64,000 nt of DNA from assembly GCF_030684315.1 (NCBI RefSeq), contig NC_081367.1, positions 44,241,853 to 44,305,852 on the forward strand. The letters are read 5' to 3'. A model generated the notes under the pieces. The model saw nothing but the letters and a program-made list of their open reading frames with translations, ran no database searches and was not told where the DNA came from. The position numbers were made by a program, and so were the translations under genes. Positions 5,906 to 51,550 of the stretch are shown one piece after another; positions within the stretch are counted from its first letter, which is position 1; each line of letters starts with the position of its first letter. This DNA is from Stegostoma tigrinum. Its lineage: Eukaryota.

Positions 5906-6608
5906 GGCACTTTTGTCCTGGCTAACCTGCTGTTCCTGTGCTTCCATGTGGTGGCGGTGGTTGTGGGTCTGGAAGTCATTAGTTGTGTTAGAAATTAGTT
6001 CAGTTCTCACCTTGTTGGCCACCTGCCCATTCAGATCTCAGTCCTGCTCCAGCAGACTACACATTTCTGTAATGGTTTCCGAAGATATTCTCAGTCTGCA
6101 GTGGCAATATGCCATGCTCCTGTGGAGGAAGCAGCATTGAGGAAAATAGATTCTTGGCCCGTCGTATCACATCCACGTTGCGATGGGACTTTCAGCTGTG
6201 ACCTTTTCCATGTGGAGGCCCCTGAGGCTACTGCTGTTCCTGGGCCTTCTGAAGCATCTGTTCCTCCTCTATTTCTCTGCCACCACAGTGATGATAACCC
6301 TTGCTGTGGCTGGATTCATCATTCACCGTTCTAATGAAACTGCACGGGGAATACCATTAACAGAATGGCTCCATAGTAATGTGAAGTCAGTGTTCACATT
6401 CAGCATGTTCCCACTTAACTCCTACTTCATCATTTAGACCATGTCTTTGTCTCCTAACATTACCCACAAGCCCTCAGGCTGCAGTTTACTGATGCCGGCC
6501 ATTATTATTCATTTTACATCCCCAAGGGTTGGAGGTGAGTTGGGGCGGGGTTTAGGGGGTGTCCATCAGTTCCCCTGTCTCGCCTGCAATAATCATGTCC
6601 CCCAGTGC

Positions 6609-6801
6609 TAATGGGAACTGCAGATGCTGGAGAATCCAAGATAATAGAATGTTAGGCTGGATGAACACAGCAGGCCCAGCAGCATCTCAGGAGCACAAAA
6701 GCTGACGTTTGAAGGACCTAGGCCCAAAACGTCAGCTTTTGTGCTCCTGAGATGCTGCTGGGCCTGCTGTGTTCATCCAGCCTCACATTTTATTATCTTG
6801 G
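6609..6801 (-). mobile_element. Two-armed inverted PLE family-1 mini-insertion, tail on the left
   Basis: Arms are reverse complements; 14-bp TSD atgtcccccagtgc at 6595-6608 and 6802-6815. Confidence 0.9.
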
Positions 6802-7367
6802 ATGTCCCCCAGTGCACTAGCTTTTCTCACACTTACCCTGATTTACATTCTGTTACTCAGGCATTGGACATGAGCGGACTGACTATGACCCATTCTCCGG
6901 CCTGTAATGAAGCAGAACTCCTGAGCTTGGACATCCCAAGTGGCTGACCACCAGTGTCCGAGCCCCTGGTTTGTGACCAGGCTATGGTCTTGACTGACTC
7001 TGTCAGTGCTCCCTGACTAACAATAATTCCCCTGATGCTTTGTAAAACTTTTTAGACTTGCCCATTTGGTTGAAGCACATTCATTGTGTTTGCTGATGTG
7101 CTGGTACAGACTTTGGGTGTGACAGTAGGGCCTGTTTCCATGCTGTGTGACTCTTATTGGCTGTAAATGATTTGATCTCTTTCTCAGATGCCATGGTACT
7201 GTAAATTGCAATAACAAACAATTATGTGATTCTTTAATGTGTCAATCTTTATTGTCAAAAGAAATTCTTAAGAGTGTAAATACCTAAAACTGCATCCTTT
7301 GACTTAGCCCCTACAGTTAACCAGCTGGAAAAGTTGACAAGCGAATAAACAAACTCATTTAGAAAGG

Positions 7368-7450
7368 GATAACAAGGTGTAGAGCTGGGTGAACACAGCA
7401 GGCCGAGCAGCAGGAAAGCTGATATTTCAGGCCTAGACCCTCCTTCAGAT
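7368..7450 (-). mobile_element. Short tail-less PLE family-1 fragment
   Basis: gataacaaggtgtagagctgggtgaacacagcaggcc...tttcaggcctagaccctccttcag. Confidence 0.75.
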
Positions 7451-7592
7451 TTTTTTGAGATTTATTGCTCGAATTGTAGATCAGGCAATTGAACAAAATT
7501 GACTCGGGGTTTTTCATTTGCAAAATGCTGAAAGACCAATTAGAACACCAATGATCAATTGCTAACCCTCTGAATGAACATACAAAATTAAG

Positions 7593-7760
7593 GATTAGAT
7601 TAGATTAGATTCCCCACAGTGTGGAAACAGGCCCTTTGGCCCAACAAGTTCACACCGCCCCTTGAAGCATCCCACCCAGATCCATCCCCCTATAACCTAC
7701 ACAGCCCTGAACTCTGTGGACAATTTAGCACGGCCAATCCACCTAGCCTGCACATCCCAT
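7593..7760 (-). mobile_element. V-SINE/HE1-like SINE 3' fragment
   Basis: (attag)n tail, cagtgtggaaacaggccctttggccc, and caatttagcacggccaatccacctagcctgcacatc. Confidence 0.7.
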
Positions 7761-7764
7761 GTCC

Positions 7765-8035
7765 AACCCTCCCTCCCATCCCAGCTCCTTGACCTAATAC
7801 CTGTCCATTTTCTCTCAGACCCCTCCCAGTGATCTATCCCCACTACCCCCTACCTGCATTCACCTATCAACATCCCGCCTATCTTCCCCAGCCCCACCTC
7901 CCCTCTCTCTATTTATTTCAGAGTTCCCTACCCTCTCCCCATTTCTGAAGAAGGGTCCCAACCCAAAATGTCAACTTTCATGCTCCTGTGATGCTGTGTG
8001 GCATGCTGTGCACCTCCAGCAAAACACTGTTGTGT
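7765..8035 (+). mobile_element. Degenerate PLE family-1 3' region
   Basis: Pyrimidine-rich 3' UTR, then ttctgaagaagggtcccaacccaaaatgtc and a decayed downstream module. Confidence 0.7.
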
Positions 8036-11000: not shown

Positions 11001-11182
11001 TAATTGTATTGGATGTGACGAACATCTTAACCTGATATAAATGAAGCAATGCTTTCATGGAAGGCTTTCATTGGACTTTTGAATGTAATATTCACAATAA
11101 TGTATTTTCCCTGATTGTTCCTACCTTGTAGCATTTACAATCTCTACCAGTGTGTGATACTGAGCAAGGTTTGTTTCAATTA

Positions 11183-11357
11183 ACAAAGTGTGGAGCTGGA
11201 TGAACACAGCAGGCCAAGCAGCATCTCGGGAGCACAAAAGCTGATGTTTCGGGCCTAGACCCTTCATCAGAGAGGCTGATGCTGCTTGGCCTGCTGTGTT
11301 CATCCAGCTACACACTTTGTTATCTTGGATTCTCCAGCATCTGCAGTTCCCATTGTC
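11183..11357 (+). mobile_element. Two-armed inverted PLE family-1 mini-insertion, tail on the right
   Basis: 13-bp TSD tttgtttcaatta at 11170-11182 and 11358-11370; arms join at tcatcagagagg|ctgatgctgc. Confidence 0.9.
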
Positions 11358-11769
11358 TTTGTTTCAATTAGTTCACTGCTGCTAATTCTCCATTGCCTTG
11401 TCCTGTCTTGGGCCCATCCAGTGATTAATGGTAGAAGATACCCCACCATTGACTATATCAGCAGAAGAAGCAGTGTTCTTGATCACAGAACTGTTTATTA
11501 CAGTAACAATAAGTATGATTACATTTGATCAGTCATTATTATTAGGACATTCGGGAGCTGGTACAGATTTATCTGTTCCTTCTGAAAACTTTAAAAAAAA
11601 GCTTAGAAATAATTAAACCAAGTGTGAGGTTACACTGAAGTGTTGCTCAGAAGTGTTTTCTTTTACCTTCAATTAGGTCACTAAACCACGTGAGACTTTC
11701 CTTCCACGTACATAGTATATTCCGATTGACATGCACACTTATTATGATTGAATTTATTGATTAGCTTAA

Positions 11770-12460: not shown

Positions 12461-12968
12461 TAAACAAAAATCGATAGAACTGCGGATGCTGTAAATTAGG
12501 AACGAAAATAGAAGTTGCTGGAAAAGCACAGCAGGTCTGGCAGTATCTATGAAGAAGAAAATCAGAGTTAATATTTTGGGTTAAAACTGACTCAGAGATA
12601 GTAGGAGCTGCTGATGCTGGAGAATCTGAGATAGCAAGGTGTAGAGCTGGAGGAACACGGCAGGCCAAGCAGCATCAGAGGAGCAGGAAAGCTGACATTT
12701 TGAGTTAGATCCTTCATCAGAAAATCAGCTTGACTGAAAATACTTATTGGACAGCAATAATTAGCATAAAATGATGAGCCATTTTGACTCATTTTCTGAA
12801 GAGTCCAGACCTGAAACATCAGCTTTCCTGCTCCTCTGATGCTGCTTGGCCTGCTGCGTTCATCCAGCTCTACACCTTGTTATCGCTTAACATTTTGGGT
12901 CCAGTGTTCTGAAGAAGGGTCACTGAACCCGAAATGTTAACTGATTTTTTTTTCTTCATGGATATTGT
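12461..12968 (-). mobile_element. Two-armed family-2 PLE mini-element interrupted by a family-1 insertion
   Basis: Left arm 12461-12581 resumes at 12887-12905; right arm from ~12906 reads gttctgaagaagggtcactgaacccgaaatgttaac. Confidence 0.75.
12582..12886 (-). mobile_element. Two-armed family-1 PLE mini-insertion with a captured 64-bp centre
   Basis: 14-bp TSD ttaatattttgggt/ttaacattttgggt at 12568-12581 and 12887-12900; arms at ~12592-12725 and 12794-12884. Confidence 0.85.
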
Positions 12969-13042: not shown

Positions 13043-13143
13043 GTACGGTGCAATGGTAGTGTCCCCATTTCTGGCCCAGAAGATCTGGGTTCCTTTCCAA
13101 ACTGGGGCTTGAGATGTGTCACAAAGGGTTGATTGAAAATACT
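13043..13143 (+). mobile_element. Short tRNA-derived SINE
   Basis: A-box-like ggtgcaatggtagtgtcccc, then ctgggttc, ending gttgattgaaaatac; related copies at 24712-24820 (-) and 57687-57804 (+). Confidence 0.6.
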
Positions 13144-15174
13144 TTTTGGACAGCAATAATTAGCATACAATGATGAGCCATTTTGACTCATTGTGTTAAT
13201 ACGAACAGATGAAATTATTTTTTGGCTGTAGTTTAGGAGTTACATTCCACAGAAGGAAGTTGACTGTGAAATCACAGCAATCTCAATGGTTCTTAATGAA
13301 ATTACTTAGTACTTTTTTTAATAGATAAACCATATGCTTCCAAGGCAAATTAACATTCAAATGTTTCTCAGAATTATTTTAACTGGTGAAAAGAAATTGA
13401 GGAATAGATCATGCCCAGTAATCACATTTTGGAGTTATTCACTTGCAACGTAAGTGGGTGGACTTTTATTTATATTTATTTGTTCTGGCAACATAGGTGA
13501 TGCTGGCAAAGTATTTATTGTCTATCCAAAGTTGTCCTTAGAATTTGGAGATGGGCTTTATTGAATTAATGTAGTTCTTCTGGCATTGGTGCTTCTACAG
13601 TTTTGTTACATGGGGAATTCCAGAATTCCGACACAGCCACAACATAGGAATGTAACATATCTCAAGGTCAAGCGTGGTATAAAATGGGTTTTCCCATAAT
13701 GCTGCTGATCTTGTCTATCTTTCTGGTAGTAGTCACGTAGGATGGAGTTTTTGTTGATGTTAACTTGGTGACAACCTATTGTGTATCCCTTCAGGGTTGA
13801 ATATTTGTCCTGAGGCAGGAGAATTAATCAAGCAATACCTTCCTGCTGTTCACATATTGACCAAAGATTTTTTTAACACGTCAGAAGAGAGAAATGGAGA
13901 CTTTGTTTGCTGTTTTGTCAGGAGCATAGCATCTTTAGCAGTAAAGTACTTTCAATCAAATCTGAAGTGGCAGGTTGGAGTCTTCAGCTCAAGCCAAGAA
14001 TGTTTTCACAAGATCCATGTTGACCCCTCTATTACTGAAGTCAATCTTTGAAGTATGGCCAACAGCATCTTGCTGGGAGAACACTTCACATTGACTAGTT
14101 TTGAAGATGCTTAAAATAACCCAACACTCACTTGTGATGATAAGTTTAAATTATTCCAAACACCAACTTGGAGCAGCAGTTATATTTGGTATCAAGTTAG
14201 TTTCCATCTAGAATTTAAATGTAATAAAGATAGTCTTTGTGATTCACAGTATGCTGGGGCCATGCTGACATACTGCCAAGCAACAGAGTTTATGAAATCT
14301 ATTGAAATAAGATAATTACATTGAAATTATTCTTCTGCTGAATCAGAATTTTCAGTTTTTAAAACTTCTAACAAACTTCTTTTGTTTCTTTATGCGATTT
14401 TTGTATATTTGCAGTGTCTGGGAGAGTGGCGTAAAGACATAAGTTGGACTTTTGGGTGGGATGGCTGGGTGGATAATCATCAAAGGTTCTGACAGGATGG
14501 TGTAGGTGTGAGAACCTTGGTGGATAACATCTTGACAAGCATGGCACTTTTATCTACCTACTTATGTGAGATGCCCTGCATCAGTCTCCTGGTGCCAGGA
14601 GAGTATCCCACTGCCACCTACCCTGGGCCTGTGAAAAGAGCTGACAAATAATTTCCAGGTACTGGCTATAGGGTATCAGAGAGGCTTATTAATGAGTCAG
14701 TTATGCCCCTTATCCCTGAGCCCATTGCAATTTTGGTGGTGGTTTAATGATTACATGGGCATTTCACAGCTTTCCTGTGCCCTCAGAAGGCTACCCAGCA
14801 AAACTTCAGGGTTTACCAGCGGCCTCCATGTCCTTCATATTTGGTCTCACTGCCACTGATCAAAGCACCTGGGATTGGGCAGAGACCGCCTCTGACCTCT
14901 TTCCTTCTGTCTTTCCCGTAATGTCCAGCCTATGACCCCATCCTGCCCTCAGCCGTGTGTTCTCTAACATTCCTGAGTGTTGGACGTGTGCATTACCCCA
15001 AGCATACATCTCTCCTGACAGCAATGGTCAGCTGCTGGCCGCTGCTCTGTCAGGGCTCTTGGTTGTTGGGTGACCATTTGCCTCTGGCTTCTCCCATGGA
15101 ACTGTCTGTGAGACTCCCTGCCAGGTGTCTGACTGGAGGACAAAACCCTGACCAAATTCTGGTTCTTTCTCTGC

Positions 15175-27249: not shown

Positions 27250-27530
27250 CACATGTGCAGCGGTAAAGTCCGAGTGAGTGTTGATCCCTTTACTGGGAGA
27301 TAGCAGAGTAAAGATGGTGGCACATCCTCTTGAAGAGTGCAGCAGATTGTTGATCTTTCTCACCTGGAACACAGCATTGACCCAGGCTGCATGCTAAGTC
27401 TAGATGGCTCGGTCTGTTGGCATAGGATCCTATGCCAGTCAGCAGGATGCAGCACTGCCCTGTCTCCACCATACCCTCCACCAGCTTCTCCAGGTTCCTA
27501 TCAGTGAATTGAGGAACTAGCTTCTCTTTC
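27250..27530 (-). mobile_element. Possible Harbinger-type Myb/SANT ORF remnant
   Basis: Reverse translation KLVPQFTDRNLEKLVEGMVE resembles the PRFSDxxLExLVxxV start of Myb/SANT-like proteins of Harbinger transposons; recognised by pattern only. Confidence 0.35.
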
Positions 27531-27542
27531 TGGTTTGAGTTA

Positions 27543-27734
27543 AGATAACAAAGTGTGGAGCTGGATGAACATAGCAGGCCAAGCAACATCTCAGGAGCAC
27601 AAAAGCTGATGTTTCAGGCCTCGACCCTTCATCAGAGATTGTGCTCCTGAGATGTTGCCTGGCCTGCTGTGTTCATCCAGCTTCACACTTTGTTATCTTG
27701 GATTCTCCAGCATCCGCAGTTCCCATTATCTCTA
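27543..27734 (+). mobile_element. Two-armed inverted family-1 mini-insertion, tail on the right
   Basis: 13-bp TSD ctggtttgagtta/ctggtttgagcta at 27530-27542 and 27735-27747. Confidence 0.9.
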
Positions 27735-28747
27735 CTGGTTTGAGCTAGTTGTGTCTGAAGTAGTGGGCAGCTGGGCTTTAAATATGGCAGCATGATTACC
27801 AGAAACTCTGAGTGGCGAGCTCTTGATATGGCTACCGTGGATCCTGGGTGTTGAATTTAATGAAGTGATTCACAGGAGATTACATGAGAAAGGTCACCCC
27901 AGACGTGGGGGCGCGAAGCTCCCTTGACAAACCACTTTGTCGGAAAATGGGGAAAATTCATTCTTAAGTGCCCAAACCATCTCTTCTAGGCTCAGAGACA
28001 AGTTGAGTGTGTTGGTTAAGGAAGAGGTAGGGAGGCAGTGTGGCGGATGGAGTAGTGTGCCAGTTGGGTGGCTGTTTGTCATGGGTCAAATGGCAGATGT
28101 GTGAGAGGCAAGAATGAGTGGATGATAAGTGAAGGTGAGTAGCTGGGTGAGGTTTTGGGGTTAAGGTGGCACATGTGGCAGTGTTGAGGATGGTCGGACG
28201 ATAGGATTGGAATTCAGCTGGTTGGTCATGCTCAGTAGGGGAGGGGAGTGTGGGCGATTGGGGATCGGAGATGAAGGAGGTCGGAGATATGTATTTAGCT
28301 GGGGGTTAGAGCAGGTTGAAGTCCTCTCACTTATTTTGGAACTATTGTCTGGGTGAATGAACTGGAATCCCCTAATGTCTGCAAATGGAACTTAGAGGTC
28401 AAGCTATTTTTGGAGGATTCCAAAAGGCCAGGTGATTGCCCATTATACATGTAAAATTTCCAGGTAATTGTCAGTACATCAGCACTTTGGAGGTGTTCTG
28501 ACATGCATCTGTTGGTTTTGTCCAGTCTCTCTCCGTCTGCAGAGCAGAATATCTAGATGTCCATTAGACACTGCGTATTTAATGATTATAAGATACACAA
28601 TTACAGTGATTCAAAAGAATATGATCCCAAACAACTGGTGCAAAGAAGGTGGAAGACAATAAAACTAAAAGAAAAAACAAGCATAGAGTGGGGACTGTAC
28701 AGTCAGAGTGATAAGCAATTCTTGTTTGAGGCAAATCAGATTATTGG

Positions 28748-32205: not shown

Positions 32206-33670
32206 GGTAATAAAGTGTGAGGCTGGATGAACACAGAAGGCCAAGCAGCATCTCAGGAGCACAAAAGCTGACGTTTTGGGCCTAGACCCTTCATCAGAGA
32301 GGGGGATGGGGTGAGGGTTCTGGAATAAATAGGGAGAGAGGGGGAGGCAGACCGAAGATGGAGAGAAAAGAAGATAGGTGAAGAGGAGAGTATAGGTGAG
32401 GAGGTAGGGAGGGGATAGGTCAGTCCAGGGAAGACGGACAGGTCAAGGAGGTGGGATGAGGTTAGTAGGTTGGAAATGGAGGTGCGGCTTGGGGTGGGAG
32501 GAAGGGATGGGTGAGACGAAGAACAGGTTAGGGAGGCAGAGACAGTCTGGGCTGGTTGTGTGGTGCAGTGGGGGGAGGGGGCGAACTGGGCTGGTTTTGG
32601 GATGCGGTGGGGGAAGGGGAGATTTTGAAGCTGGTGAAGTCCACATTGATACCATTGAGCTGCAGGGTTCCCAAGTGGAATATGAGTTGCTGTTCCTGCA
32701 ACCTTCGGGTGGCATCATTGTGGCACTGCAGGAGGCCCGTGATGGACATGTCATCTAAAGAATGGGTGGGGGAGTTGAAATGGTTCACGACTGGGAGGTG
32801 CAGTTGTTTATTGCGAAACGAGCGGAGGTGTTCTGCAAAGCGGTCCCCAAGCCTCTGCTTGGTTTCCCCAATGTAGAGGAAGCCACATCGGGTACAATGG
32901 ATACAGTATACCACATCGGCAGATGTGCAGGTGAACCTCTGCTTAATATGGAAAGTCATCTTGGGGCCTGGGATAGGGGTGAGGGAGGAGGTGTGGGGGC
33001 AAGTGTAGCACTTCCTGCGGTTGCAGGGGATGGTGCCGGGTGTGGTGGGGTTGGAGGGCAGTGTGGAGCGAACAAGGGAGTCACGGAGAGAGTGGTCTCT
33101 CGGGAAAGCAGACAAGGGTGGGGGATGGAAAAATGTCTTGGGTGGTGGGGTCGGACCAATGGTATCAATGTGGACTTCACCAGCTTCAAAATCTACCCTT
33201 TCACCCACCGCATCCCAAAACCAGCCCAGTTCGTCCCCTCCCTCCACTGCACCACACAACCAGCCCAGCTCTTCCCCTCCACCCACTGCATCCCAAAACC
33301 AGTCCAACCAGTCTCCGCCTCCCTAACCTGTTCTTCCTCTCACCCATCCCTTCCTCCCACCCCAAGCCGCACCCCCATCTACCTACTAACCTCATCCCAC
33401 CTCCTTGACCTGTCCGTCTTCCCTGGACTGACCTATCCCCTCCCCACCTATACTCTCTCCACCTATCTTCTTTTCTCTCCATCTTCGGTCCGCCTCCCCC
33501 TCTCTCCCTATTTATTCCAGAACCCTCACCCCATCCCCCTCTCTGATGAAGGGTCTAGGCCCGAAACGTCAGCTTGTGTGCTCCTGAGATGCTGCTTGGC
33601 CTGCTGTGTTCATCCAGCCTCACATTTTGTTGTCTTGGATTCTCCAGCATCTGCAGTTCCCATTATCTTT
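32206..33670 (+). mobile_element. Large two-armed inverted PLE (Neptune-like): left arm 32206-33155 (-, tail-less, with GIY-YIG), right arm 33156-33670 (+, tailed)
   Basis: Left arm encodes CNRRKCYTCP...VVYCIHCTRCGFLYIGETKQRLGDRFAEHL; junction gtcgga|ccaatggtatc; no TSD visible. Confidence 0.9.
33541..33572 (+). ncRNA. Minimal hammerhead ribozyme motif in the PLE 3' repeat
   Basis: CU-CUGAUGA-A-GGGU(CUAG)GCCC-GAAA-CG-UC^AG; the same motif occurs at 37498, 41788 and 52518. Confidence 0.7.
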
Positions 33671-35823
33671 GCTTAGATTGTATGTTTGGGTCTTGGACAG
33701 TGAGGAGAGAGGAGGTGAAAAGGAAAGAGGATTTCCCCATACTTCCCTCTCCCCATCATCACAATTGACAAGATCCTCAACCATGTCCAGCCCATTTCCT
33801 ACAATTCTATCCTCCTCTACAAGGGCACAATTACATTTAATGTGCATTGCATTTCTGTGGGGTCCGTGATTGGAATCACCAGCCAGAAATGCAGAGCTCA
33901 CTGTTCCTGTTATAACTAGCATCTAATTATGATTGCCACATCTCTCAAATTTAGTCCCATTTATGAGATACTGAAAAATAAATGAATACGAGTGGAGTGT
34001 TTATCTTTATGCAAGATTGTGACCCAGATATTACTTGGTAATTCAGGTTTAGAAATAATTGATATTGCAGTAAAAATCTGTTAGTGTCTCTGGTTGTAAT
34101 TTTGATTTAGTGTCTGAACTGCAAACAACAACAATCCATCAAAGGGGATGGGAGTTTTCAGAACCAGCCTTTATTGTGGTCGTTAAAAGTGTAATTCTGT
34201 GATGTTTGAGTTCTTGAGAACATAGGATATAGAACAGTACTGCACAATGCAGGCCCTTCAGCCCGCGATGTTGTGCCAACCTATTATCCTACTCTAAGAT
34301 CAAACTACCCTGCATACCCTTCATTTTACTATCATCCATGTGCCTATCCAAGAGCCGCTTAAATGTCCCTCATGTATCTGACTCTGCTACCACCACTGAC
34401 AGTGCATTCCACGTACCCAACACTCTGTGTAAAGAACCTACCTCTGACATCTCCCCTATTCCTTCCTCCAATTACATTAAAATTATGCCCCCGTGTAACA
34501 GTCATTTCCGCCCTGGGAAAAAGTCTGACTATCCACTCTGTCTATGCCTCTCATCATCTTGTAAAATTCTATCAAGTCAACTCTCATCCTCCTTCGCTTC
34601 AATGAGAAAAACCCTAGCTCCCTCAACCTTTCTGCATAAGATCTGCCCTCCAGTCCAGGCAGTGTTCTGGTAAATCTCCTCTGCGCCGTCTCTAAAGCTT
34701 CCGCATCCTTCCTATAATAAGGCGACCAGAGTGAATACACTATTCCAAGTGTGGTCTAAACAGAGTTTTATAGAGTTACAGCATAACCTTGTGGCTCTTA
34801 AATTCAACCCCCCTGCCAATGACAGCCAACACACCATACGCCTTCTTAACAACTCTATCAGCTTGGGTGGCAACATTGAGGGATCTATGGATGTGGACCC
34901 CAAGATCTCTCTTTCCTCCACACTGCCATTAATCCTGTATTCTGCATTCAAATTTTACCTTCCAGAATGAATCGCTTCACACTTTTCTGGGTTGAATGTC
35001 ATCTGCCACTTTGCCCAGCTCTGCATCCAGTCAATATCCTATTGCAACCCGCAACAGCCCTCCACACTATCCGCAGCTCCACCAACTTTTATGTCATTAG
35101 CAAACTTACTAAACCACCCTTCCATTTCCTGATCCAAGTCACTTATAAAAATCACAAAGAGCAGAGGTCCCACAACAGATCCCTGTGGAACACCACTGGT
35201 CACCAAGCTCCAAGCTGAATACTTCCCATCTACTACCACCCTCCGTCTTCTGTTGGACAGCCAGTTCTCTATCCAGACAGCCAAGGTTCCCTGAATTCCA
35301 TGCCTCCTTACTTTCTGAATGAGCCTACCATGGGGAACCTTATTAGATGCCTTTCTAAAATCCATATGTACCACATCCACTGCTCAACCTTCGTCAATGT
35401 ATTTTGTCACATCCTCAGAATTCAATAACACTTGTGAGGCATGTCCTGCCCCTCACAGAGCCATGCTGACTATTTCCAATCAAACAATGCTTTTCCAAGT
35501 AATCATAAATAATATCTCTCAGAATCCTCTCCAATAATTTCCCCACCACAAAAGTAAGAATGCTCTGTAATTCCCAAGGGTTATCCAAATTCTCTCTCTC
35601 GAACAAGGGAATGACATTTGCCACCCTCCAGTCATTTGGTACTACTCCAGTGGGCAGTGAGGATGCAAAGATCATTGCCAAAGGCGCAGCACTCTCTTTC
35701 CTCCCTTCCCATGGTAACCTTGGGTATATCCTGTCCGGCCCTTCTATCCTTATGTATTTCAAAATTTCTGGCACATCCTCCGTCCTAACATCAACCTGTT
35801 CGAGCATATCAGCCTGTTTCATA

Positions 35824-37607
35824 GATAATAAAATGTGAGGCTGGATGAACACAGCAGGCCCAGCAGCATCTCAGGAGCACAAAAGCTGACATTTCGGGCC
35901 TAGACCCTTCATCAGAGATGGGGATGGGCTAAGGGTTCTGGAATAAATAGGGAGAGAGGGGGAGGCGGACTGAAGATGGAGAGAAAAGAAGATAGGTGAA
36001 GAGGAGAGTATAGGTGGGGAGGTAGGGAGGGGATAGGTCAGTCCAGGGAAGACAGACAGGTCAAGGAGGTGGGATGAGGTTAGTAGATAGGAAATTGAGG
36101 TGCGGCTTGGGGTGGGAGAAAGGGATGGGTGAGAGGAAGAACAGGTTAGGGAAGCAGAGACAGGTTGGACTGGTTTTGGGATGCAGTGGGTGGAGGGGAA
36201 GAGCTGGGCTGGTTGTGTGGTGCAGTGGGGGGAGGGGACGAACTGGGCTGGTTGTGGGATGCGATAGGGAAGGGTAGATTTTGAAGCTGGTGAATTCCAC
36301 ATTGATACCATTGGGCTGCAGGGTTCCCAAGCAAAATATGAGTTGCTGTTCCTGCAACCTTCGCGTGGCATCATTGTGGCACTGCAGGAGGCCCATGATG
36401 GACATGTCATCTGAAGAATGGGTGGGGGAGTTAAAATGGTTTGCAACTGGGAGGTGCAGTTGTTTATTGCGAACCGAGCGGAGGTGTTCCGCAAAGCGGT
36501 CCCCAAGCCTTTGCTTGGTTTCCCCAATGTAGAGGAAGCCACACTGGGTACAGTGGATGCAGTATACCACATTGGCAGATGTGCAGGTGAACCTCTGCTT
36601 AATATGGAAAGTCATCTTGGGGCCTGGGATAGGCGTGAGGGAGGATGCCCTTGTCTGCTTTCCGGAGAGACCACTGTCTCCGTGACTCCCTTGTTCGCTC
36701 CACGCTGCCCTCCAACCCCACCACACCTGGCACCTTCCCCTGCAACCGCAGGAAATGCTACACCTGCCCCCACACCTCCTTCCTCACCCCTATCCCAGGC
36801 CCCAAGATGACTTTCCATATTAAGCAGAGGTTCACCTGCACATCTGCCAATGTGGTATACTGTATCCACTGTACCCGGTGTGGCTTCCTCTACATTGGGG
36901 AAACCAAGCGGAAGCTTGGGGACCGCTTTGCAGAACACCTCCGCTCGTTTCGCAACAAACAACTGCAGCTCCCAGTCGCAAACCATTTCCACTCCCCCTC
37001 CCATTCTCTAGATGACATGTCCATCATGGGCCTCCTACAGTGCCACAATGATGCCACCCGAAGGTTGCAGGAACAGCAACTCATATTCCGCTTGGGAACC
37101 CTGCAGCCCAATGGTATCAATGTGAACTTCACCAGCTTCAAAATCTCCCCTTTCCCCCACCGCATCCCACAACCAGCCCAGTTCGTCCCCTTCCCCCACT
37201 GCACCACACAACCAGCCCAGCTCTTCCCCACCACCCACTGCATCCCAAAACCAGTCCAACCTGTCTCTGCCTCCCTAACCGGTTCTTCCTCTCACCCATC
37301 CCTTCCTCCCACCCCAAGCCGCACCTCCATCTCCTACTACTAACCTCATCCCACCTCCTTGACCTGTCCGTCTTCCCTGGACTGACCTATATTCTCCCCA
37401 CCTATACTCTCCTTTCCACCTATCTTCTTTTCTCTCCATCTTCAGTTTGCGTCCCCCTCTCTCCGTATTTATTCCAGAACCCTCACCCCATCCCCATCTC
37501 TGATGAAGGGTCTAGGCCCGAAACGTCAGCTTTTGTGCTCCTGAGATGCTGCTGGGCCTGCTGTGTTCATCCAGCCTCACATTTTATTACCTCAGATTCT
37601 CCAGCAT
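35824..37607 (+). mobile_element. Large two-armed inverted PLE inside CR1: left arm 35824-36645 (-, tail-less), right arm ~36647-37607 (+, tail runs into the gap)
   Basis: Both arms encode the GIY-YIG domain (ORFs 36061-36726 - and 36645-37343 +). Confidence 0.9.
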
Positions 37608-37739
37608 NNNNNNNNNNNNNNNNNNNNNNNNNNNNNNNNNNNNNNNNNNNNNNNNNNNNNNNNNNNNNNNNNNNNNNNNNNNNNNNNNNNNNNNNNNNNN
37701 NNNNNNNNNNNNNNNNNNNNNNNNNNNNNNNNNNNNNNN
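37608..37739. other. Assembly gap (132 N)
   Basis: Run of N. Confidence 0.99.
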
Positions 37740-38562
37740 GTCCTCACAAATGTCCAGGTCCCTCTCACTGGTGAATACTGAAGCAAAATATTCATTAAGG
37801 ACCTCCTCACCCTTCTCCGACTCCAGGCACAAGCTCCCTCCACTATCCCTGATCGGCCCTACTCTCACTCTGGCTATCCTCTTGTTCCTCACTTAAGCAT
37901 AGAATGCCTTGGGGTTTATTTTAATCCTACCTGCCAAAGTTTTTCATGCCCCCTTCTAGGTCTCCTAAGTCCATTCCTCAATTCTTTCCTGGCTACCTTT
38001 GTAAACTTCAAGACCCCTGTCTGATCCTTGTTTCTGCAACCTTAAGTTTCTTCCCGTTGACTGTTCCATCTGTCTTGTCATCTAAGGTTCCTTCACCTTA
38101 TCATCTCTTCCTTGCCTCAGTGGGACAAACCTATCCAGAACTTGTAGCAAGTGCTCCCTAAACAACCTCCACGTTTCTGTTGTGCATTTCCCTGAGAACA
38201 TCTGTTCCCAATTTATGCTCCACAGCTCCTGCCTACTAACATTGTAATTCCCCCTCCCCCAATTAAATACTTTCCCATACCATCTGCTCCTATCCCTCTC
38301 CATGATTATAATAAAGGTCAGTCAGTTGTGATTTCTATCGCCATAATGCTCTCCCACCGACAGATCTGACACCTGGCCTGGTTTATTGCCAAGCACCAAA
38401 CCTAATATGGCCTCCCCTCTAGTTGGCCTATCTACATATTGAGTCAGAAATCCTTCCTGGACACACCTGACAAAATCTTCTCCATCCAAACTGTTTGCAC
38501 TTCGGAGGTTCGAGTTGATGTTAGGGAAGTTGAAGTCACCCATGACAACAACGCTATTACTT

Positions 38563-39228
38563 GATAATAAAATGTGAGGCTGGATGAACACAGCAGGCCA
38601 AGCAGCATCTCAGGAGCACAAAAGCTGACGTTTCGGGCCTAGACCCTTCATCAGAGAGGGGGATGGGGGGAGGGAACTGGAATAAATAGGGAGAGAGGGG
38701 GAGGCGGACCGAAGATGGAGAGTAAAGAAGATAGGTGGAGAGGGTGTAGGTGGGGAGGTAGGGAGGGGATAGGTCAGTCCAGGGAAGACGGACAGGTCAA
38801 GGAGGTGGGATGAGGTTAGTAGGTAGCTGGGGGTGCGGCTTGGGGTGGGAGGAAGGGATGGGTGAGAGGAAGAACCGGTTAGGGAGGCAGAGACAGGTTG
38901 GACTGGTTTTGGGATGCAGTGGGTGGGGGGGGAAGAGCTGGGCTGGTTGTGTGGTGCAGTGGGGGGAGGGGATGAACTGGGCTGGTTTAGGGATGCAGTG
39001 GGGGAAGGGGAGATTTTGAAACTGGTGAAGTCCACATTGATACCATATGGCTGCAGGGTTCCCAGGCGGAATATGAGTTGCTGTTCCTGCAACCTTCGGG
39101 TGGCATCATTGTGGCAGTGCAGGAGGCCCATGATGGACATGTCATCAAGAGAATGGGAGGGGGAGTGGAAATGGTTTGCGACTGGGAGGTACAGTTGTTT
39201 GTTGCGAACTGAACGGAGGTGTTCAGCA
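38563..39228 (-). mobile_element. Single-arm tail-less PLE inside CR1
   Basis: Starts gataataaaatgtgagg; encodes AEHLRSVRNKQL...EQQLIFRLGTLQPYGINV; 7-bp duplication attactt at 38556-38562 and 39229-39235. Confidence 0.9.
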
Positions 39229-39564
39229 ATTACTTCTGCACCTTTCCAAAAGCTGCTTCCCAATCTGTTCCTCTGTTGAAGATCTTTATAAGTAAGATTT
39301 TCAAAAAGGTGAAGCGTGCAGAGAAAGGCTGGATTGAATCTGCTTTCATTCACAAATCTCTTATTAAAGTATGTAAGGATCAACTGAATTTTGTATGCTG
39401 ATCTTTTTGGTTATTTGTACTAAATATTTCCTACCATGTTTTATTTATTTTAAATTTATTGACTGTAGGACAGAATATTGATATATTACCCATTCAGAAG
39501 TGATAGCATTGTCATTCATACAACACTACTATGAGAAAAGTCATTGAGTGTTTCTGCATTCAGA

Positions 39565-40190: not shown

Positions 40191-41701
40191 CCCTACCATT
40201 ACTGCATCCAATTCAGTTTTTATTTAAATGTTTCTAGGGTTGTCTTGCAATTCCCTGCAATCCATTTGAAGTGTTGATCACTTATGGACCCAGAATCTGA
40301 TGAAAAATAACTGTACACTCATTATCACTGTACAAATAATAACCATGTAAATCACATACCTCATTACTGTACAAACCTCACAGATTTCTGTAGAAATCAG
40401 ATATTACTGTACAAATAATGACTAAGGTTTACACTGATCACAATTAATGAGACTTATTGCATTTTGTGCTGTTAATTAGACTTGCTCATGTATGCTTATG
40501 TTTGAAATATTGTACAAACAGTCCTGTATGAAGTATGAACTGTTAATGACACCGTGAGGGAGACACTATAACTGGAGTCTAGGTGGATAACCACCCTGCG
40601 TGATCGTCACATATCTAAACTGCAACTACATTTTGAAAAATGAACTCAAATCTAGATTATTCTAAGTCTGCTTTCTGTGTTGTCTTCTGTGAAGTCAGAC
40701 AGACACAAATACTAATGTTCAAACTCTCTGCTATCTCCGAGCTTCTCACTATCAAATTCCCCAGTCTTGTCCCCAAAGGGGCCAATGCTAACTTTAGTTG
40801 CTCTCAAAAGTGAACTATTTGGAGTGCAATTTATATTTCTGCATGTATTGAATTCTTGGTGATACCAATTTTTAAAAGAATATGTTTGCTTTTTTTCCTC
40901 TCTCTAAATTCAATATTATCTCCCCCTTTCTGTTTTATCTTTCTGTATCTGATTTGACTCTGAATTATCCATTTTAATTCCCACCCCTTTCTTTGCCATT
41001 CCTACCTATTTTTTTGTCATCTACTGATCATTGATTCAAAAGCAATGCACTGATAGTGTTGTCGTCCACCGAGACTCTGGATGTAGTGATGCCATTAACA
41101 GTTTGGCAGCTAACCGATTGGCAATGTGACAAAAAACAGATGATGCAATGTTTGTAGACTAGCAAGACCACCTTGGTACAGTCCCTGGGAACACTATGCA
41201 AGGAGAACTGTAACTAGAGAAGTAAGGATGGAAATAATTTTGAGAAGAAAAGAGCACCCGGGGTTTACAGCAAGAGAATGGTCTCCAGAAATGCCTGGGA
41301 TATAGATAATTGATCTTTCAGCTGTGGTTTGAAGTACCTTTTACATCATGGACTGATTCTGAGAGTATAATACAGTAATCTAAACTAAATATGAAGTGGA
41401 AAATTCAGGGAGAAAAATTGAATTATGAGCCAAAGGAAGGATATTCTTTTGATAACAAACAAGACATTCAGTGATTAATGCATTACTGGATGAATCTGCC
41501 AACATGCAGTGTTAGACAATGGACGCATGTTTAGCGTGTATGGAACAGACTGGCGAAAATGCTGTCTAGACTGAGTAATAAAACAAAGTTAAGGAATTTG
41601 AAAATTCCACCAGTTTGAGATTTTGTGATGACTATACATTAAGACATTGTAAAATACTGTCATGACTTGAAAATTGGTCTGAATCAATCACTTTGAGTAT
41701 G

Positions 41702-41923
41702 GATAATAAAATGTGAGGCTGGATGAACACAGCAGGCCAAGCAGCATCTCAGGAGCACAAAAGCTGACGTTTCGGGCCTAGACCCCTCTCTGATGAAGGG
41801 TCTAGGCCCGAAACGTCAGCTTTTGTGCTCCTGAGATGCTGCTTGGCCTGCTGTGTTCATCCAGCCTCACATTTTATTATCTTGGAATCTCCAGCATCTG
41901 CAGTTCCCATTATCTCTGATACT
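41702..41923 (+). mobile_element. Young two-armed inverted family-1 mini-insertion with an intact hammerhead core
   Basis: ~84-bp perfect inverted arms; 15-bp TSD actttgagtatggat at 41690-41704 and 41924-41938 (gat shared with the element). Confidence 0.95.
41788..41819 (+). ncRNA. Minimal hammerhead ribozyme motif
   Basis: ctctgatgaagggtctaggcccgaaacgtcag. Confidence 0.7.
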
Positions 41924-43309
41924 ACTTTGAGTATGGATGTAGTTTACTGTGAAACGTCGCTGTTATGAAATAGGTCGTAAATGAAGGAAGCATAGATAAT
42001 ATTGGCCAGAGCAAATTAGAAAGTTACTGTTTTTGGACAATGCATGAATTTTTAATTTACACAATCAGAACAATATTTTATTCCTTTAATGGAATATGCC
42101 CTCTGAGCTAAAGAAATGGAAAAAAAAGTGTTATAGACATCAGCGAGCAAATATTTAGAAGATGAAGCAAGTCAGCTGTGTTTAAACTGCATTTGTGAGA
42201 TTTGTAAGAAATGCCAAAACGTACCATCATAGCCTATAATAAGTATTTTTGTAGCAAATGATTTCAGTGAGGTAATGCAATGAATTTAAAGGTTTGCGAT
42301 AAAGAAAAGCATGAGATTTTTCCAGTCAACAATAATAAATAGTTAAGACGAGAAAATAATTATGGGTAATGCAATGGAAATGTGGATGGGGACTGGACGT
42401 GGATCACCAACAAAATTTCTACTGATAAATTGGGGGTGGGGGAGATACAGAATGGGTGAAATTTGCTAAGAATGAATTTAGAGATGTGTGCACAAATATG
42501 AACCAAATAATTATGAATACAACAGCAGAAAACCTTTTTAGCAGTGGGCTGTGTGAAAGAAATCACATAGTAATAGATAAATGGTTCATAAAATTTTGGC
42601 AGATCAGACAAAATGTACATTATCATCTGCACTAGTATGGATTGTCCATGCAAAAAAACTCATTGCAGATGGTCATTGGATACAGTCTGAATCAATTAGT
42701 TTTTATCAGAAATCATAGGGATTTCAATTAGCTGTACTTTATCAGAGCTTTTGAATGCAATGCATATAAGTAGAAAGGCTTTAATGAAAGCTTAAATCTC
42801 AGGAAGAATTCAGGTGAGCCTTGAGAAACTTGGGTAAAGCCATTCAAAACTGTTTTGAATCAGGGAGGCATGGCTCATTGTGTGTGAGAGAGAGGACAGT
42901 TGAAAGAGAGGAGAGGCTCAGCAAAGGTAATTGGTAAAGACTGAAAGATAATAATTGTACAGCTTAGGAATCAAATTGATTGGGTATATCCTCGATATGG
43001 ATTACAAATTTACAGATTGCAAAGGAGTTTCAAAAAGTAGTGAGGAGCCAGGTACCCCTCAGCCACAGCTAGCACAGTGATGAGGCTCAGACTGTCCCAG
43101 TCACCAGTTTGTCTGTGATGGACAGATCAGTTCTGATGATCAAAATGAAGCCATTGGTACCAAAGGTCAATTACCAAAAGTGGATAATAAAGTCCATTCT
43201 TTTGCTGGATGGGGCTAATCAATGGAGAAATATGACTTTAACAAGTTGAGCAGGGAAAGCCACTATACAATGTAAAAGCCAGATGAATGCATAGGACCAG
43301 GCCATAGCC

Positions 43310-46772: not shown

Positions 46773-49169
46773 TTTTAAATTGATCAATCCTCATTGGAAA
46801 ACATACTCTTGCTTCCTCAATTCAAGAATCTTAAACGCTTTGTGGTTCACCACCAACAAAGCAATAATCCTGAGGGTCACTGATGACCAATCAGCAGCCA
46901 GCATCATGTCTGCTTGACCTTGGGAACTTACCGAAGGTTTTCTGCCAAAGAGGGGAAAGACTCAAAATTCGGGTGCCAACAACTGAATTGTTGAAATGAG
47001 GTGTAGGGCCCAATTTTGTCTGAACCTTGGGCTTCCTGCTCGAAATGCATGCTAATAGTTATGCACCTGATGGGCATTATAAAAGGCCTCTACTCTTTTT
47101 GTTCTTTGTGATGAAAAGCACATTTCACTGGTTCACTTGCTACAGTCTATAGATGCAGTTTTGTTAACATCTGCTTGTAACAGACATAATTTGACACTAC
47201 CCATTGTAGCACAGGATCAAGAGTCTGAGAAAAGTTGGTTTTCCTAAAGTTTGAAACATTTTTTTCTGCTTTATTTCACTAAAAAATTACATCTGTGATG
47301 TAATAATGTTTTCAGTATTGCATACATCAGCATTTTGTAGATCACAAACAAAATGTACACTCTGGAAGACTGCTAATGTTGATTAGGTGCTGGCATAGAC
47401 ATAGTATCACTCTTAAATCCCAATGTCTTGCAGTTCAGGCTCTGGTTTCTGACCATCCATACCATCACATTTATGCCAACAGCACGTATATTGAATCAAT
47501 GAAGGGCCCTGCTATATAGTTATGTAATACTTCGCTGTTTTAAAATAGTTTTGTACCATTTATAGTAGGTAAACTTAAAAAAAAAGAATAATTGATTATC
47601 TCCTAGTGTTGGCTATTGCAAAATAAAGTGCATTGAAGGGATTCTGGCTGGTTCCAGCAAAGGAATATAAATCTTTTTTGTGTTCCATTTAGCATGGCAG
47701 ATGCAATGTGCCAGGTGTGCCCATAAAGATAGTATTTTTGCCATTGTGCTGTGCAAGTCATTTTCATAATGATGAGGACTGTGCCATCTACCTGCACTTA
47801 AAGTAATTTTTGTATTTAGGGTCAGCAACTATCCAATGGTACATATTTACTGTAAGAGACCATTGAAATACAGACAGAGAGCGTAGCAAGAATTAATCAA
47901 TTTAATTTCAGTTTGGTTCAATGTCCCAATCTGTTACTCCTCTGTACTATAAGGTGTAAATTTCAGTATAAACCTTTTTGATGTTTAAAGAAGATTACCA
48001 CATCTGAGTTATCGGCAAGTATTCTTACTATAACAGTAAGTTGCCTTTTATGAATCTTTGCTATTGCAGTTATTGCATTAATGTTTGCATCAAATGGTGA
48101 CATGTTACTGCTGGCCACTGATCTTGAAGAAGGCTGTCCTGAAAGTTCTGGTGATGTCTGTGGATTATTGTATCTGGCTCCAAGTCAAAGTGATCTCCAG
48201 GTGTACAACAGCTGTAATGTCATCAAGCAGGATAAGCATCCTAGGGAAAATTGAAGGATTCTCAGACAGAAAACCAGAAAGTTAAAAGTACTGATGAACT
48301 TAGCCTTTTTATGGTTTCGGTTAGTGAAATATGATCACATTTTAGAAGATAAAATATCAGCTGGAAGTTTTCATTTTGGAAACGTTGACTTTTCAGAAAT
48401 ATGCAATTGGCTGTTAATGGCCAAGGAGGATGTATGACTGTGAGTAATAAATTAGTACATAAATTCCTAGTAAATTAGATCTCATTTAACAGAGTGAGAC
48501 CATTTTCAAGAGATTTTAGCAGTGGTAGTAACATCATAGAAATGAAAGTTTCCATCAATTCATTGATTTCTTAAAGGCTTCACTGTTGGGTTTGGAAGAT
48601 ACGGAATGTTTCTACTGCACATCTTCTGGAGAAGCATACAATCACTTGTGCAGAAGCAATGTAAGGATCTCTATTTTTGACTACACACAGACTCCAGTAG
48701 TTCTGAGAGTGTCAATTTGACACATGGAGTTATTCCTACTGGAAAATCTGGGGCAAGAGATTGACCACAATCTTCTTTAAAAATATTTAATTGTTGAAAT
48801 TAAAAGGAATATTTTTATTAGGTCTGGTTAGTAGCCCATCACGAAATTTGCATTCTTGATCATCACAGCCATTCGCCATTTATATTCATTAATTGTTTGG
48901 CAAAACACAACTTTAATTCCTAAATTACAATTCATATTCCAAAACACACAAACCATGAATTAGATTTTCACAACAACATATGTGTAGTGAAGAAATTTCG
49001 CACTTAATTTGTATTGAGGTAGCAATATAGTTCATTAAACTGTTTTCTACTGAACATACAGACTTACTCCATTTTGCTAGTTGGTTACCTATTAAATTAA
49101 TCATTTGTGAGTTGTACTATTTAATAATCCACTATATTATGTAATAATTGTCCCCTCATTTGCCCACAG

Positions 49170-49301
49170 TATGTAGTGTGCGATGTCAAACATTCCTTAT
49201 CTCAAAAGTGGGAGAAGATTGGATCTTCCTGATACTGCTTGGATTATTGATGGCATTAGTCAGTTGGGCCATGGATTTTGCTATCGCAATGTGCCTTCAA
49301 G
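49170..49301 (+). CDS. CLCN2: Internal coding exon of chloride channel ClC-2 (equivalent to mammalian exon 3), phase 1 at both ends
   Basis: Acceptor cccctcatttgcccacag|TA and donor CAAG|gtaaga. The 132 bp translate as (V)[43 protein letters not shown], matching the remembered ClC-2 sequence [44 protein letters not shown] much better than ClC-1. Neighbouring exons were not found in the window. Confidence 0.93.
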
Positions 49302-49517
49302 GTAAGATTAGGACACTGCTATTGGTGAATGAAGATATCGACCTTCATAGGAACATAGTTACCTAAAAATACTGCTAATCCTTTGTCACATGGTTTGTTC
49401 TGACATATTTTGTGTATTGCTCATGTTTTCTCATCCCATGTTCACAAAAATCAGTGTTAATTTGTTTCTTTGTATTTGGGAAAGGTAGATTTTCTGTGTG
49501 TCTTTGTCATTTGGTAT

Positions 49518-49620
49518 ATTCTAAGAAAGGGTCACTGGACCCGAAATATTAACTCTGATCTTTTCTTCTCAGAAGCTGCCAGACCTGCTGAGTTTTTCCA
49601 GCAACTTCTCTTTTGTTGTT
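49518..49620 (+). mobile_element. Tail-less family-2 PLE fragment ~220 bp downstream of the CLCN2 exon
   Basis: tctaagaaagggtcactggacccgaaatattaactc...gctgccagacctgctgagtttttccagcaac. Confidence 0.75.
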
Positions 49621-51146
49621 GTTTGTCATTTGGTAGTTGGTTGTTTCGCATTAACGTAGCGGCTCCTAACATTGAATGGGAAAATTTGATTACTTTTGGA
49701 AATTTTACTGATATTCAGTACTTTTTGTTTAATCATTCTCAATTTGCCATATTTGGATGTCATTTAGTATTTGTCAGGGGATTCAGAATAAGCCAATTTC
49801 ACAGTTTCAAAGTTGATTCCACAATATTGCGACTGCAGTGGACATAGTCATAATATGAATTAAATCATTGCCATATCCTGTGTTTGATCTTGGATGACCC
49901 AAATAAACCCTCTTAAACCATATTTGAAATCAGGATCAGGATTCATCTGACTGCCTTCAGATCTGACGAGGAACCTGGTAAATTGTAGCTACTTTGAAGT
50001 GACAAGTTACTTTGGTTATGATTAAGTCATAGATCAGATAACAATGTCAACCTGATACTTATAACTTGCTGAAGTGCAAGCATCACTTTATTTTGTTTAG
50101 TGTCAGTTGTTTAAAAAGATTTAAAATATTTAATTTTGAAAATTGCAAGATGCTATTTTGTTTTGAGCTTGTACATTCCCAGCCTAATTCTGGCAACTGG
50201 GTTATGAATGCCCTTTTCAGTATTGATAAATATACTGAAATGATGAAGAATGGGTTTGTATTTTCCCAGGGAAGAGACTGAACAAAGATTAACTGTTTGG
50301 GTCTTGGAGAGAACAAAATGCTTATATCACAATTTGTTTTTGTCTTCAATGAATGAATTTGCCCCAATATTTAGTGGGAAGATGATGTGGAGAAACCAAA
50401 AATCCCACATGTAACTGTGGATTCTCATTGTTATTTTCATCCACTTCCCATTTAAGCTGGTCAGATTATCAGTTTTGGGGATTTGCCGGTTGATTGCAGA
50501 CCAGATTTAAGATGAAGGTAGAGGAGAGTATCCATCAATCATGGCAGGGTATCGATCCTCTTCCCTCCAACCTGCATATTGGAGAGATTCAAAGCTTGGT
50601 ATCTCCCATCCTGTCAACTGAGAGACGTACAGTAAAGAGGTAACCAGAATGATTCAACTAACCAATACGTGAATTAAACCAAATGACAGTTTACTTCACA
50701 AGGCCCGGCATATTTTACTCAATAGAAGTGAATCTCTCAGCAGACACTAAATGGTATCCAGAAATATTTTTTAACAATGTATGAAAATCTATTTTGTTTT
50801 GTGTAGATTCTTGAAAAATTAAAGTATATTGATAAATTTGTTGTTCGTCTTTGAATCTGAAAAGCAATCATTGGGCAAGAGAGTCGTTCTTGATTGTGAC
50901 CTCAAGTAGCCCTTGCTGTTTGTAATACCAAATCTGGTTTGAAGCTGAAATCTAATATTGTTCTTAAACTGTCATTAGTGTTCCTTTCTGGTTTTTACAC
51001 GACATTGCAAATGTAATGGAAATGAAAGACAGGTTTTGGTTAATGAAATATCAAGACAAATTAAGGTATCAAACCATGGAACATCTCGATTCTGTTGTAA
51101 GCCAAGCTGTAAAAATGAAAAGGTGCCAGGTACAGCGCAGTAATTA

Positions 51147-51479
51147 AGATAACAAAGTGTGGAGCTGGATGAACATAGCAGGCCAAGCAGCATCTCAGGA
51201 GCACAAAAATAACCTGAAGAAGTTACCCTCCTCCCTCCGGACCAACCTCAGGGAATCTCTCTCCCACTGCAACTCTCTCGTGGTTCTCTCCATCTTCGGT
51301 CTGCCTCCCCGTTCTCTCCCTATTTATTCCAGAACCCCCTCCCCATCCCCCTCTCTGATGAAGGTTCTAGGCCCGAAACATCAGCTTTTGCGCTCCTAAG
51401 ATGCTGCTTGGCCTGCTGTGTTCCTCCAGCTCCACACTTTGTTGTCTTGGATTCTCCAGCATCTGCAGTTCCCATTATC
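51147..51479 (+). mobile_element. Two-armed family-1 insertion with a ~75-bp unexplained centre
   Basis: 15-bp TSD acagcgcagtaatta/acagcccagtaatta at 51132-51146 and 51480-51494; arms at 51147-51208 and 51284-51479. Confidence 0.9.
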
Positions 51480-51550
51480 ACAGCCCAGTAATTAGCGACA
51501 TTGTAGTGTTGTGTAAACTGACTTTCTATAACTAGTCTGACAATGGTTTA

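Follow-up and report, generated by a model that had tools for sequence, protein, structure and literature searches.

A 64,000-nucleotide stretch of contig NC_081367.1 of the shark Stegostoma tigrinum (the window) carries eight insertions in which two fragments of one retroelement, a Penelope-like retroelement (PLE), are joined head to head with their 3' ends pointing outward. One arm of such a pair normally ends in a short tail and the other stops short of it. We examined these insertions together with a sample of the 3.2-Gb genome, in which one terminal 23-mer of the element has 180,631 exact copies, and we argue that both strands of the target probably prime reverse transcription at two different sites. 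Comparisons with published elements refer to the available text of the papers cited.

The element and its copies in the window

On the coordinate scale used throughout, 0 is the final A of ...ATTATCTCTGA (window position 52650); site A is the tailed end and site B is the tail-less end. When the window is compared with itself and mapped to a natural copy, the two-armed, outward-facing structure that a preliminary description had reported at eight loci is confirmed (Table 1). The 13-15 bp target site duplications (TSDs) given there for the six short insertions are also present, three of them with one mismatch. The reading of all arms as plain 3' fragments holds except in the plus arm of the 51147 insertion, where 72 nt from beyond the tail (+42..+113) are fused to -198..-5, and the 38-nt tail sequence quoted in that description is exact in no copy of the window, the closest having one mismatch.

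Table 1. Copies of the element and associated features in the window (TSD, target site duplication; mm, mismatch)
Feature	Position (strand)	Arms and remarks	TSD
Two-armed insertion 6609	6595..6815	tailed (-) ~6609-6725; tail-less (+) ~6710-6801	6595-6608 + 6802-6815, 14 bp
Two-armed insertion 11183	11170..11370	tail-less (-) 11181-11281; tailed (+) 11278-11361	11170-11182 + 11358-11370, 13 bp
Two-armed insertion 12582, older subfamily	12568..12900	tailed (-) 12592-12721; spacer 12722-12796; tail-less (+) 12797-12884	12568-12581 + 12887-12900, 14 bp, 1 mm
Two-armed insertion 27543	27530..27747	tail-less (-) 27542-27638; tailed (+) 27639-27733	27530-27542 + 27735-27747, 13 bp, 1 mm
Long two-armed insertion 32206	32208..33671	tail-less (-) 32208-33155 (to -1020); tailed (+) 33159-33671 (to -521)	looked for in flanks, none found
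Long two-armed insertion 35824	35823..37607	tail-less (-) 35823-36645; tailed (+) 36648-37607	unreadable, as is the tailed-arm end, because the arm enters an N stretch at 37608
Two-armed insertion 41702	41690..41938	tail-less (-) 41702-41788; tailed (+) 41783-41923; central overlap 6 nt	41690-41704 + 41924-41938, 15 bp
Two-armed insertion 51147	51132..51494	tail-less (-) 51146-51208; (+) arm 51210-51281 joined to 51286-51479 with tail	51132-51146 + 51480-51494, 15 bp, 1 mm
Solo tailed arm	51551-52650 within 51537..52660 (+)	tail 52612-52650 sets the scale	14 bp
Solo tail-less arm	38563-39229 within 38553..39235 (-)		10-bp flanking repeat, 1 mm; weak, uncalled in TSD scoring
5'-truncated copy	60884..62751 (+)	reverse transcriptase, CX4CxxC linker and GIY-YIG frames, all broken
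Minimal type I hammerhead core	41790..41817 (+)	CTGATGA, helix II, GAAAC-GTC; predicted cut after 41817
Further copies of hammerhead core	33543, 37500, 52520, 62680 (+); 11243, 32270, 38627 (-)
Flanking DNA	13129..13192 (+)	same-strand 95% match to spacer 12730-12793, ~240 bp downstream of insertion 12582

Its sequence assigns the element to the endonuclease-bearing (EN+) PLEs, a known kind. One open reading frame (ORF) codes for a reverse transcriptase (RT) together with a GIY-YIG endonuclease at the C-terminus; it is open over 1,112 amino acids at the locus designated L184, and its start ATG lies at about +37. PF01541 was found on frames of the window and PF00078 is carried by relatives of the protein, the closest of which, among the matches listed, is a bamboo shark protein (77%). 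Comparison by eye with PMC8557442 revealed two cysteines between GIY and YIG (CCHH motif, VVYCIHCTRCGFLYIG) and downstream histidines, as expected of EN+ PLEs. The linker between RT and endonuclease, CNRRKCYTC, fits the pattern CX2-5CxxC; because this agrees with the definition in PMC8557442, we assign the element to the Neptune/Nematis type. No named Neptune or Nematis reference was among the 120 protein matches listed, and a PDB sequence search with the 1,100-aa protein gave no matches.

The copy at locus L183 shows a 402-bp tailed pseudo-LTR (long terminal repeat), the ORF, a 3.6-kb unit and a tail-less 3' end, with an 11-bp TSD. The partial tandem of pseudo-LTRs, the inverted 5'-truncated copy and the 30-40 bp tail that characterize EN+ PLEs are thus found at L183 and, as pairs, in the genome sample. 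At L184 (G000:C11:13785501-13795400) two nearly full-length copies are joined head to head, both outer ends carry a tail, and a stub made of the tail only precedes the ORF; the 1,112-aa frame, which lies in one of the arms, includes a low-complexity TADGTPP repeat of variable copy number.

The terminal module, which belongs to the pseudo-LTR, contains at -130..-103 a minimal hammerhead core, recognized by eye against PMC4209133 and expected at this place in EN+ PLEs. The core has an extra base before helix II, a G-C pair and a palindromic ACGU. An Rfam scan of the window returned no matches, the hammerhead core included.

Several other features of the window were recorded. Stubs of the older subfamily at 1390-1474, 7366-7449, 7894-8020 and 53282-53418 start at about -131, several of them after a T-rich run. 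The insertions at 35824 and 60884 sit in pieces of another abundant repeat (35415-35822 and 60000-60883), the coding remnants of which we take to be LINE-like (long interspersed element). The junction seen in the 51147 arm recurs in the genome: a post-tail piece (to ~+113) is fused to the 3' untranslated region at ~-198..-220, giving a retrozyme-like monomer of ~330 bp, in the window at 51210-51479, at loci L172, L174-L177 and L182, and in sample blocks C6, C10 and C37.

Pairing of two end sites and coupling of arm lengths

Outside the window we sampled seven 200-kb blocks at arbitrary positions (1.4 Mb in total, one block adjoining the window), using only natural copies (from the window, L183 and block C3) as mapping references. 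A tail-independent core query gave 316 matches, of which 305 were scored, and their end points were bimodal already at this stage. Units were excluded if their best piece had less than 85% identity or was shorter than 50 bp, which left 139; the excluded older arms were scored as a separate set. In addition, 29 young loci chosen by tail identity formed an extra set. The rate of pairs with two tailed arms (A+A) refers to these samples.

The 219 outward ends outside the window fall into two clusters, with 107 at -47..-29 and 103 at -13..+17, only 2 between them (-28..-14), and 7 upstream of -50. The two fixed 3' end sites that had been proposed are therefore real as clusters ~37 nt apart, but they are windows rather than single bases; inside one pair the A-B spacing ranges from 26 to 46 nt and is mostly 35-41. 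The 139 units comprise 72 A+B pairs, 26 solo B, 24 solo A, 5 pairs of A with an atypical end, 3 B+B, no A+A and 9 others. Pairs of one tailed and one tail-less arm, as had been predicted, thus account for 72 of 75, compared with 37 expected under independence (p=2e-18). The older subfamily behaves in the same way (19 pairs: 15 A+B, 4 of B with a partly matched tail, none same-type), and the tail-selected loci include 17 A+B, 1 with the second arm ending at -57, 1 A+A and 10 solo arms. The preliminary description had named continuous end points and frequent same-type pairs among the outcomes that would speak against it; the ends are bimodal and same-type pairs are rare. None of the three B+B pairs has an accepted TSD, the best call being a 6-mer. 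One of them is an inverted duplication that takes in its flank. In block C3 (L071-L090, 179850-181500) the flanks of a tail-less/tail-less pair are inverted copies of the same host DNA, and this pair probably stems from a secondary inverted duplication or from the assembly. Among all joins between copies, 90 are head-to-head, 4 tail-to-tail and 27 direct.

A TSD was called in 58 of the 72 A+B units (10-19 bp; 13-16 bp in 44 of them, with an overcall of ~1 nt in simulation) and in none of 216 mismatched flank pairs. A single TSD surrounds both arms in these 58, as expected if each pair is one insertion event, which was the earlier claim. Since solo A and solo B arms both have TSDs (7/23 and 7/26, respectively), each site can start an insertion alone. 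At both ends the target shares 1-6 nt of microhomology with the element; the mean run among the 58 is 1.86 at A and 1.67 at B, whereas the corresponding values for 239 simulated blunt insertions are 0.87 and 1.03 (p=7e-8 and 2e-4). An A-rich target motif lies outside both TSD edges, with A at positions -8 and -7, chosen post hoc from the inspected table, in 30 and 35 of 58 sites on the A side and, on the B side, in 37 of 58 at each position (the background frequency is 0.30). On sequence grounds this symmetric motif is consistent with two equivalent nicks.

The tail itself resembles a degenerate repeat of the preceding 31-34 nt (L183 2233-2289, or -60..-4 on our scale), both beginning with TCCAGC and ending with ATTATCT. 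That ATTATCT occurs at both start windows (-44 and -10) is no more than suggestive (shuffle P=0.059). The terminal module folds no better than shuffled sequences (z 0.2-1.0), therefore we claim no stem-loop at the start sites.

Arm lengths were compared in the 47 of 62 simple two-arm pairs in which both arms have at least 89% identity. Both arms are short in 34 pairs and long in 12, and only one pair is mixed (p=2.5e-10). In 29 long pairs (12 from the sample, 15 tail-selected and 2 from the window) the arms are within 20% of each other in 14, compared with 6.3 in permutations (p=0.0007). The tail-less arm reaches further 5' in 22 of the 47 pairs, the tailed arm in 16, and the two are equal within 3 nt in 9; the tail-less arm exceeds its partner by more than 50 nt in 15 of the 29 long pairs. 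The arms also share their subfamily variants, which agree at 249 of 273 sites versus 62% when permuted. Rare variants are found in one arm only in 65 cases and in both in 5, and such private variants disfavour conversion between the arms.

The 5' ends are not spread evenly. Among 105 ends above -200, the interval from -180 to -144 contains only 2, and the others cluster from -143 to -120. In 80 of 94 long arms a TATTTA box lies 33-36 nt upstream of the ribozyme core, and from its position (start 30 nt after the box) we predict a transcript start at about -134; the pile-up of 5' ends just before the ribozyme likely marks this start. In Drosophila virilis Penelope the transcript comes from an internal TATA-less promoter, 46 bp before the intron (PMC2377424), and the end of that intron maps to the 5' end of the ribozyme (PMC4209133). 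Two candidate landmarks were discarded: a 5'-end peak at -401, which was an artefact of the reference edge and disappeared with a longer reference, and a common 5' boundary at window position 60884, which is merely the truncation of that copy.

A second accumulation coincides with the predicted hammerhead cut. Genome-wide, 3,676 5' ends lie at -102, directly after GTC, compared with 980 at -103, which by estimate is about the number expected from chance extension of -102 ends, and 729 at -101; 180,631 copies read through. Among 35 short pairs, 25 have their furthest 5' point at or beyond -120, 1 has it between -119 and -103, and 9 have it at or after -102, so that both arms stop at or after -102 in 9 pairs, with 4.1 expected (p=0.0003). 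Perfect palindromes at the AGCT cut site number 727, versus 53, 154 and 23 for the controls ACGT, CTAG and GGCC, although pattern lengths and subfamily variation differ among these. The sharp peak at -102 and the AGCT palindromes indirectly suggest that the predicted hammerhead cleaves in vivo, in a few percent of arms.

The 47 central junctions have an overlap of at least 2 nt in 14 cases, of 0-1 nt in 18, and inserted bases in 15. Central microhomology is modest (at least 2 nt in 14 of 32 non-insertion junctions, null 26%). The spacer of the 12582 insertion is ~75 nt long and 64 nt of it (Table 1) likely have their template in the flanking DNA downstream; among 16 spacers listed, one is an exact 34-nt same-strand copy of DNA ~450 bp downstream (G000:C17 block L031-L050, ~62046-62079). 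These two spacers, apparently copied from DNA 240-450 bp downstream, suggest that end-joining was templated or that synthesis switched to local DNA or RNA as its template, and the junctions as a whole would fit two free cDNA ends being end-joined close to the target.

Probable priming on both target strands and the alternatives

Pairing, TSDs, microhomology and the coupling of arm lengths are read directly from the copies, and from them we infer the following course of events. Two equivalent nicks in a staggered target cut would leave 3' overhangs of ~14 nt, each of which would anneal briefly to the RNA and be extended. One strand would prime at site A (~-6..+6) and the other at site B (~-44..-35), about 37 nt upstream. 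Both cDNAs would likely have the same RNA as their template and would then be joined head to head, likely by end-joining. Short pairs would derive from the pseudo-LTR at the 5' end of the transcript, where RT would run off at the transcript start (~-134) or at the hammerhead cut (-102), and long pairs would derive from the 3' pseudo-LTR. If a single RNA is used, synthesis would have to begin at B, and the RT that starts at A would then displace the cDNA made from B; this order and a protein dimer are the least supported steps. We give priming at A and B on one RNA, followed by run-off or stalling and then end-joining, a probability of about 0.6, and consider double-ended priming on either one or two RNAs to be clearly more probable than that. 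That both nicked strands prime reverse transcription had been proposed for the window, and the proposal gains support from the solo insertions at each site, the microhomology at both ends, the symmetric motif and the longer tail-less arms. More tentative, at somewhat less than even odds, is an obligate-style double target-primed reverse transcription: a two-fold symmetric nuclease would leave 14-nt overhangs and two RTs would start at AUUAUCU-marked sites on one RNA, both copying to its 5' end.

Several observations weigh against priming of both strands on a single RNA. Solo A or solo B arms make up 50 of the 139 units, and no TSD was called in 14 of the 72 A+B pairs. A+A pairs exist at L184, L186 and L211, none with a called TSD. 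Microhomology at B would likewise be expected of an end-joining site, and shared subfamily variants could reflect a period of activity rather than one RNA. Taken by themselves, the 12 long pairs from the unbiased sample show no correlation between their 5' ends (rho 0.20, p=0.54). Tail-only A arms (-41/-40) account for just 3 of 118 tails, and more would be predicted if A-primed synthesis stalls at the B hybrid. Finally, the first 15 cut-site palindromes include 4 whose second arm stops at -53..-84 and not at B, which fits snap-back copying.

The strongest alternative keeps priming on both strands at A and B but places it on two RNAs within one complex; these may be paired by their palindromic minimal hammerheads and so be cut together. 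Strand displacement would then be unnecessary, dimeric minimal hammerheads, as proposed in PMC4209133, would account for both arms ending at -102, and the shared variants fit two transcripts of a single source locus. However, a symmetric complex alone predicts neither the excess of A+B over same-type pairs (72 versus 3), nor a long/short mix as rare as 1 in 47, nor the excess of near-equal long arms such as -777/-784 and -834/-841, and we consider two RNAs unlikely.

Less likely still is a fold-back: a cDNA primed at A would snap back on itself and serve as template for synthesis running to the target, and the second arm, cut or stopped at B, would be joined to the other target end; an "EN-mediated resolution" has been suggested for the tail (PMC8557442). 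This would account for shared variants, coupled lengths, palindromic centres, the central overlap of at least 2 nt in 14 of 47 pairs, and the second arms at -53..-84 mentioned above. In a fold-back, however, the tailed arm must reach at least as far 5' as its partner, therefore the frequent longer tail-less arms disfavour it in its simple form, and as the sole route it is contradicted by these pairs. Moreover, solo B arms have TSDs, a cDNA primed at B would hold no tail, and initiation at the inner site has been observed in vitro (PMC11167929). Snap-back copying may still account for a minority of cases.

Self-priming on an antisense template, proposed in PMC3846280 as a source of head-to-head repeats, agrees with the predominance of head-to-head joins and with some palindromic centres, but it is very improbable here, given that the 5' ends stop at landmarks of the sense RNA (the predicted hammerhead cut and the likely transcript start), that both outer ends show microhomology to the sense continuation, and that 33 of 47 centres, with 0-1 nt overlap or inserted bases, are not palindromic. 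We attach equally little weight to a secondary origin of the pairs from two independent insertions with later conversion or palindrome trimming, or from assembly errors. Long palindromes are unstable, and one B+B case is indeed an inverted duplication with its flank. PLE insertion into an element's own pseudo-LTR is also possible (PMC11167929), yet the single TSD round both arms and the private variants speak against this origin, and random pairing should yield same-type pairs. Contigs of four runs of one sample, which do not span the 41702 locus, contain many head-to-head junction variants; this is weak evidence in the same direction, as the sample is possibly that of the assembly.

Relation to known systems and significance

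The architecture of the shark element is that of the canonical EN+ PLE unit, with 5'-truncated copies, partial tandems of pseudo-LTRs, an adjoining inverted 5'-truncated copy, a short TSD, a 30-40 bp tail often at one end only, and a hammerhead in the pseudo-LTR (PMC8557442, PMC3846280, PMC2377424). The available descriptions treat the tail as optional, give no pairing counts and ascribe the tail to endonuclease resolution or self-priming, whereas pairing in the shark element is strict. Its TSDs are also longer, ~13-15 bp versus 8-10 bp in A. vaga.

In LINE-1 twin priming the second strand of the target starts cDNA synthesis at an internal RNA position, and the inverted piece ends up attached to the first cDNA, with one TSD around both. 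The shark insertions share with it a second strand that would prime internally and an inverted piece within a single TSD. The two LINE-1 pieces, however, are adjacent and non-overlapping and the internal site varies, whereas the shark arms copy the same segment, overlapping in nearly all pairs, from two internal sites in fixed windows ~37 nt apart; two-armed products are, moreover, the majority in the shark element, unlike in LINE-1. The contrast with twin priming drawn in the preliminary description stands for the product but perhaps not for the mechanism: the shark element may use twin priming confined to fixed windows, with strand displacement. One example of LINE-1 twin priming is given in bioRxiv 10.1101/2024.12.14.628481.

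The closest mechanistic parallel is PAc, a Poseidon element of Anolis carolinensis, for which two internal RT start sites bounding the tail, cutting and extension of both target strands, an upstream ribozyme and a dimer predicted by AlphaFold2 have been reported (PMC11167929). The shark element resembles PAc in its two sites bounding the tail and in the upstream ribozyme, and two-site initiation is predicted from its genomic signature. PAc showed no strand preference of the start sites and no RNA ends at the ribozyme cut. It belongs to the Penelope/Poseidon clade and has its start sites inside the ORF, whereas those of the shark element precede the ORF start and its linker is of the Neptune/Nematis type.

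Non-LTR retrozymes, which are non-autonomous, hammerhead-bearing tandem derivatives of PLE pseudo-LTRs (bioRxiv 10.64898/2026.07.22.740005), have a monomer boundary that resembles the +113/-198 deletion junction of the 51147 arm; they are direct tandems, whereas the eight window insertions are inverted pairs.

The architecture, and two internal RT start sites with extension of both strands in vitro (PMC11167929), are already published. The formation of inverted and tandem PLE structures is called undefined in PMC8557442, and the available main text of the PAc study neither discusses inverted insertions or TSDs nor links the two start sites to them. In the literature covered, from which subscription papers are mostly absent, we found no statement of strict pairing, coupled lengths, a cut-site peak or double-ended priming for PLEs.

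The analysis adds quantitative genomic evidence on an open question of PLE mechanism by turning the scars of a very abundant family into statistics. Strict pairing, coupled arm lengths and the peak at the predicted cut site yield predictions for the published in vitro system, and they would add a second clade type with two-site initiation as well as indirect support for cutting by minimal PLE hammerheads in vivo. For annotation, the short TSD-flanked palindromes, which mimic miniature inverted-repeat transposable elements or short interspersed elements, are retroelement stubs. If the obligate-style double reaction outlined above is correct, one reaction would account for the inverted repeat, for the tail on one side only and for the 100-nt stubs in their hundreds of thousands, and the peak at -102 would preserve a fossil trace of germline cleavage by the hammerhead.

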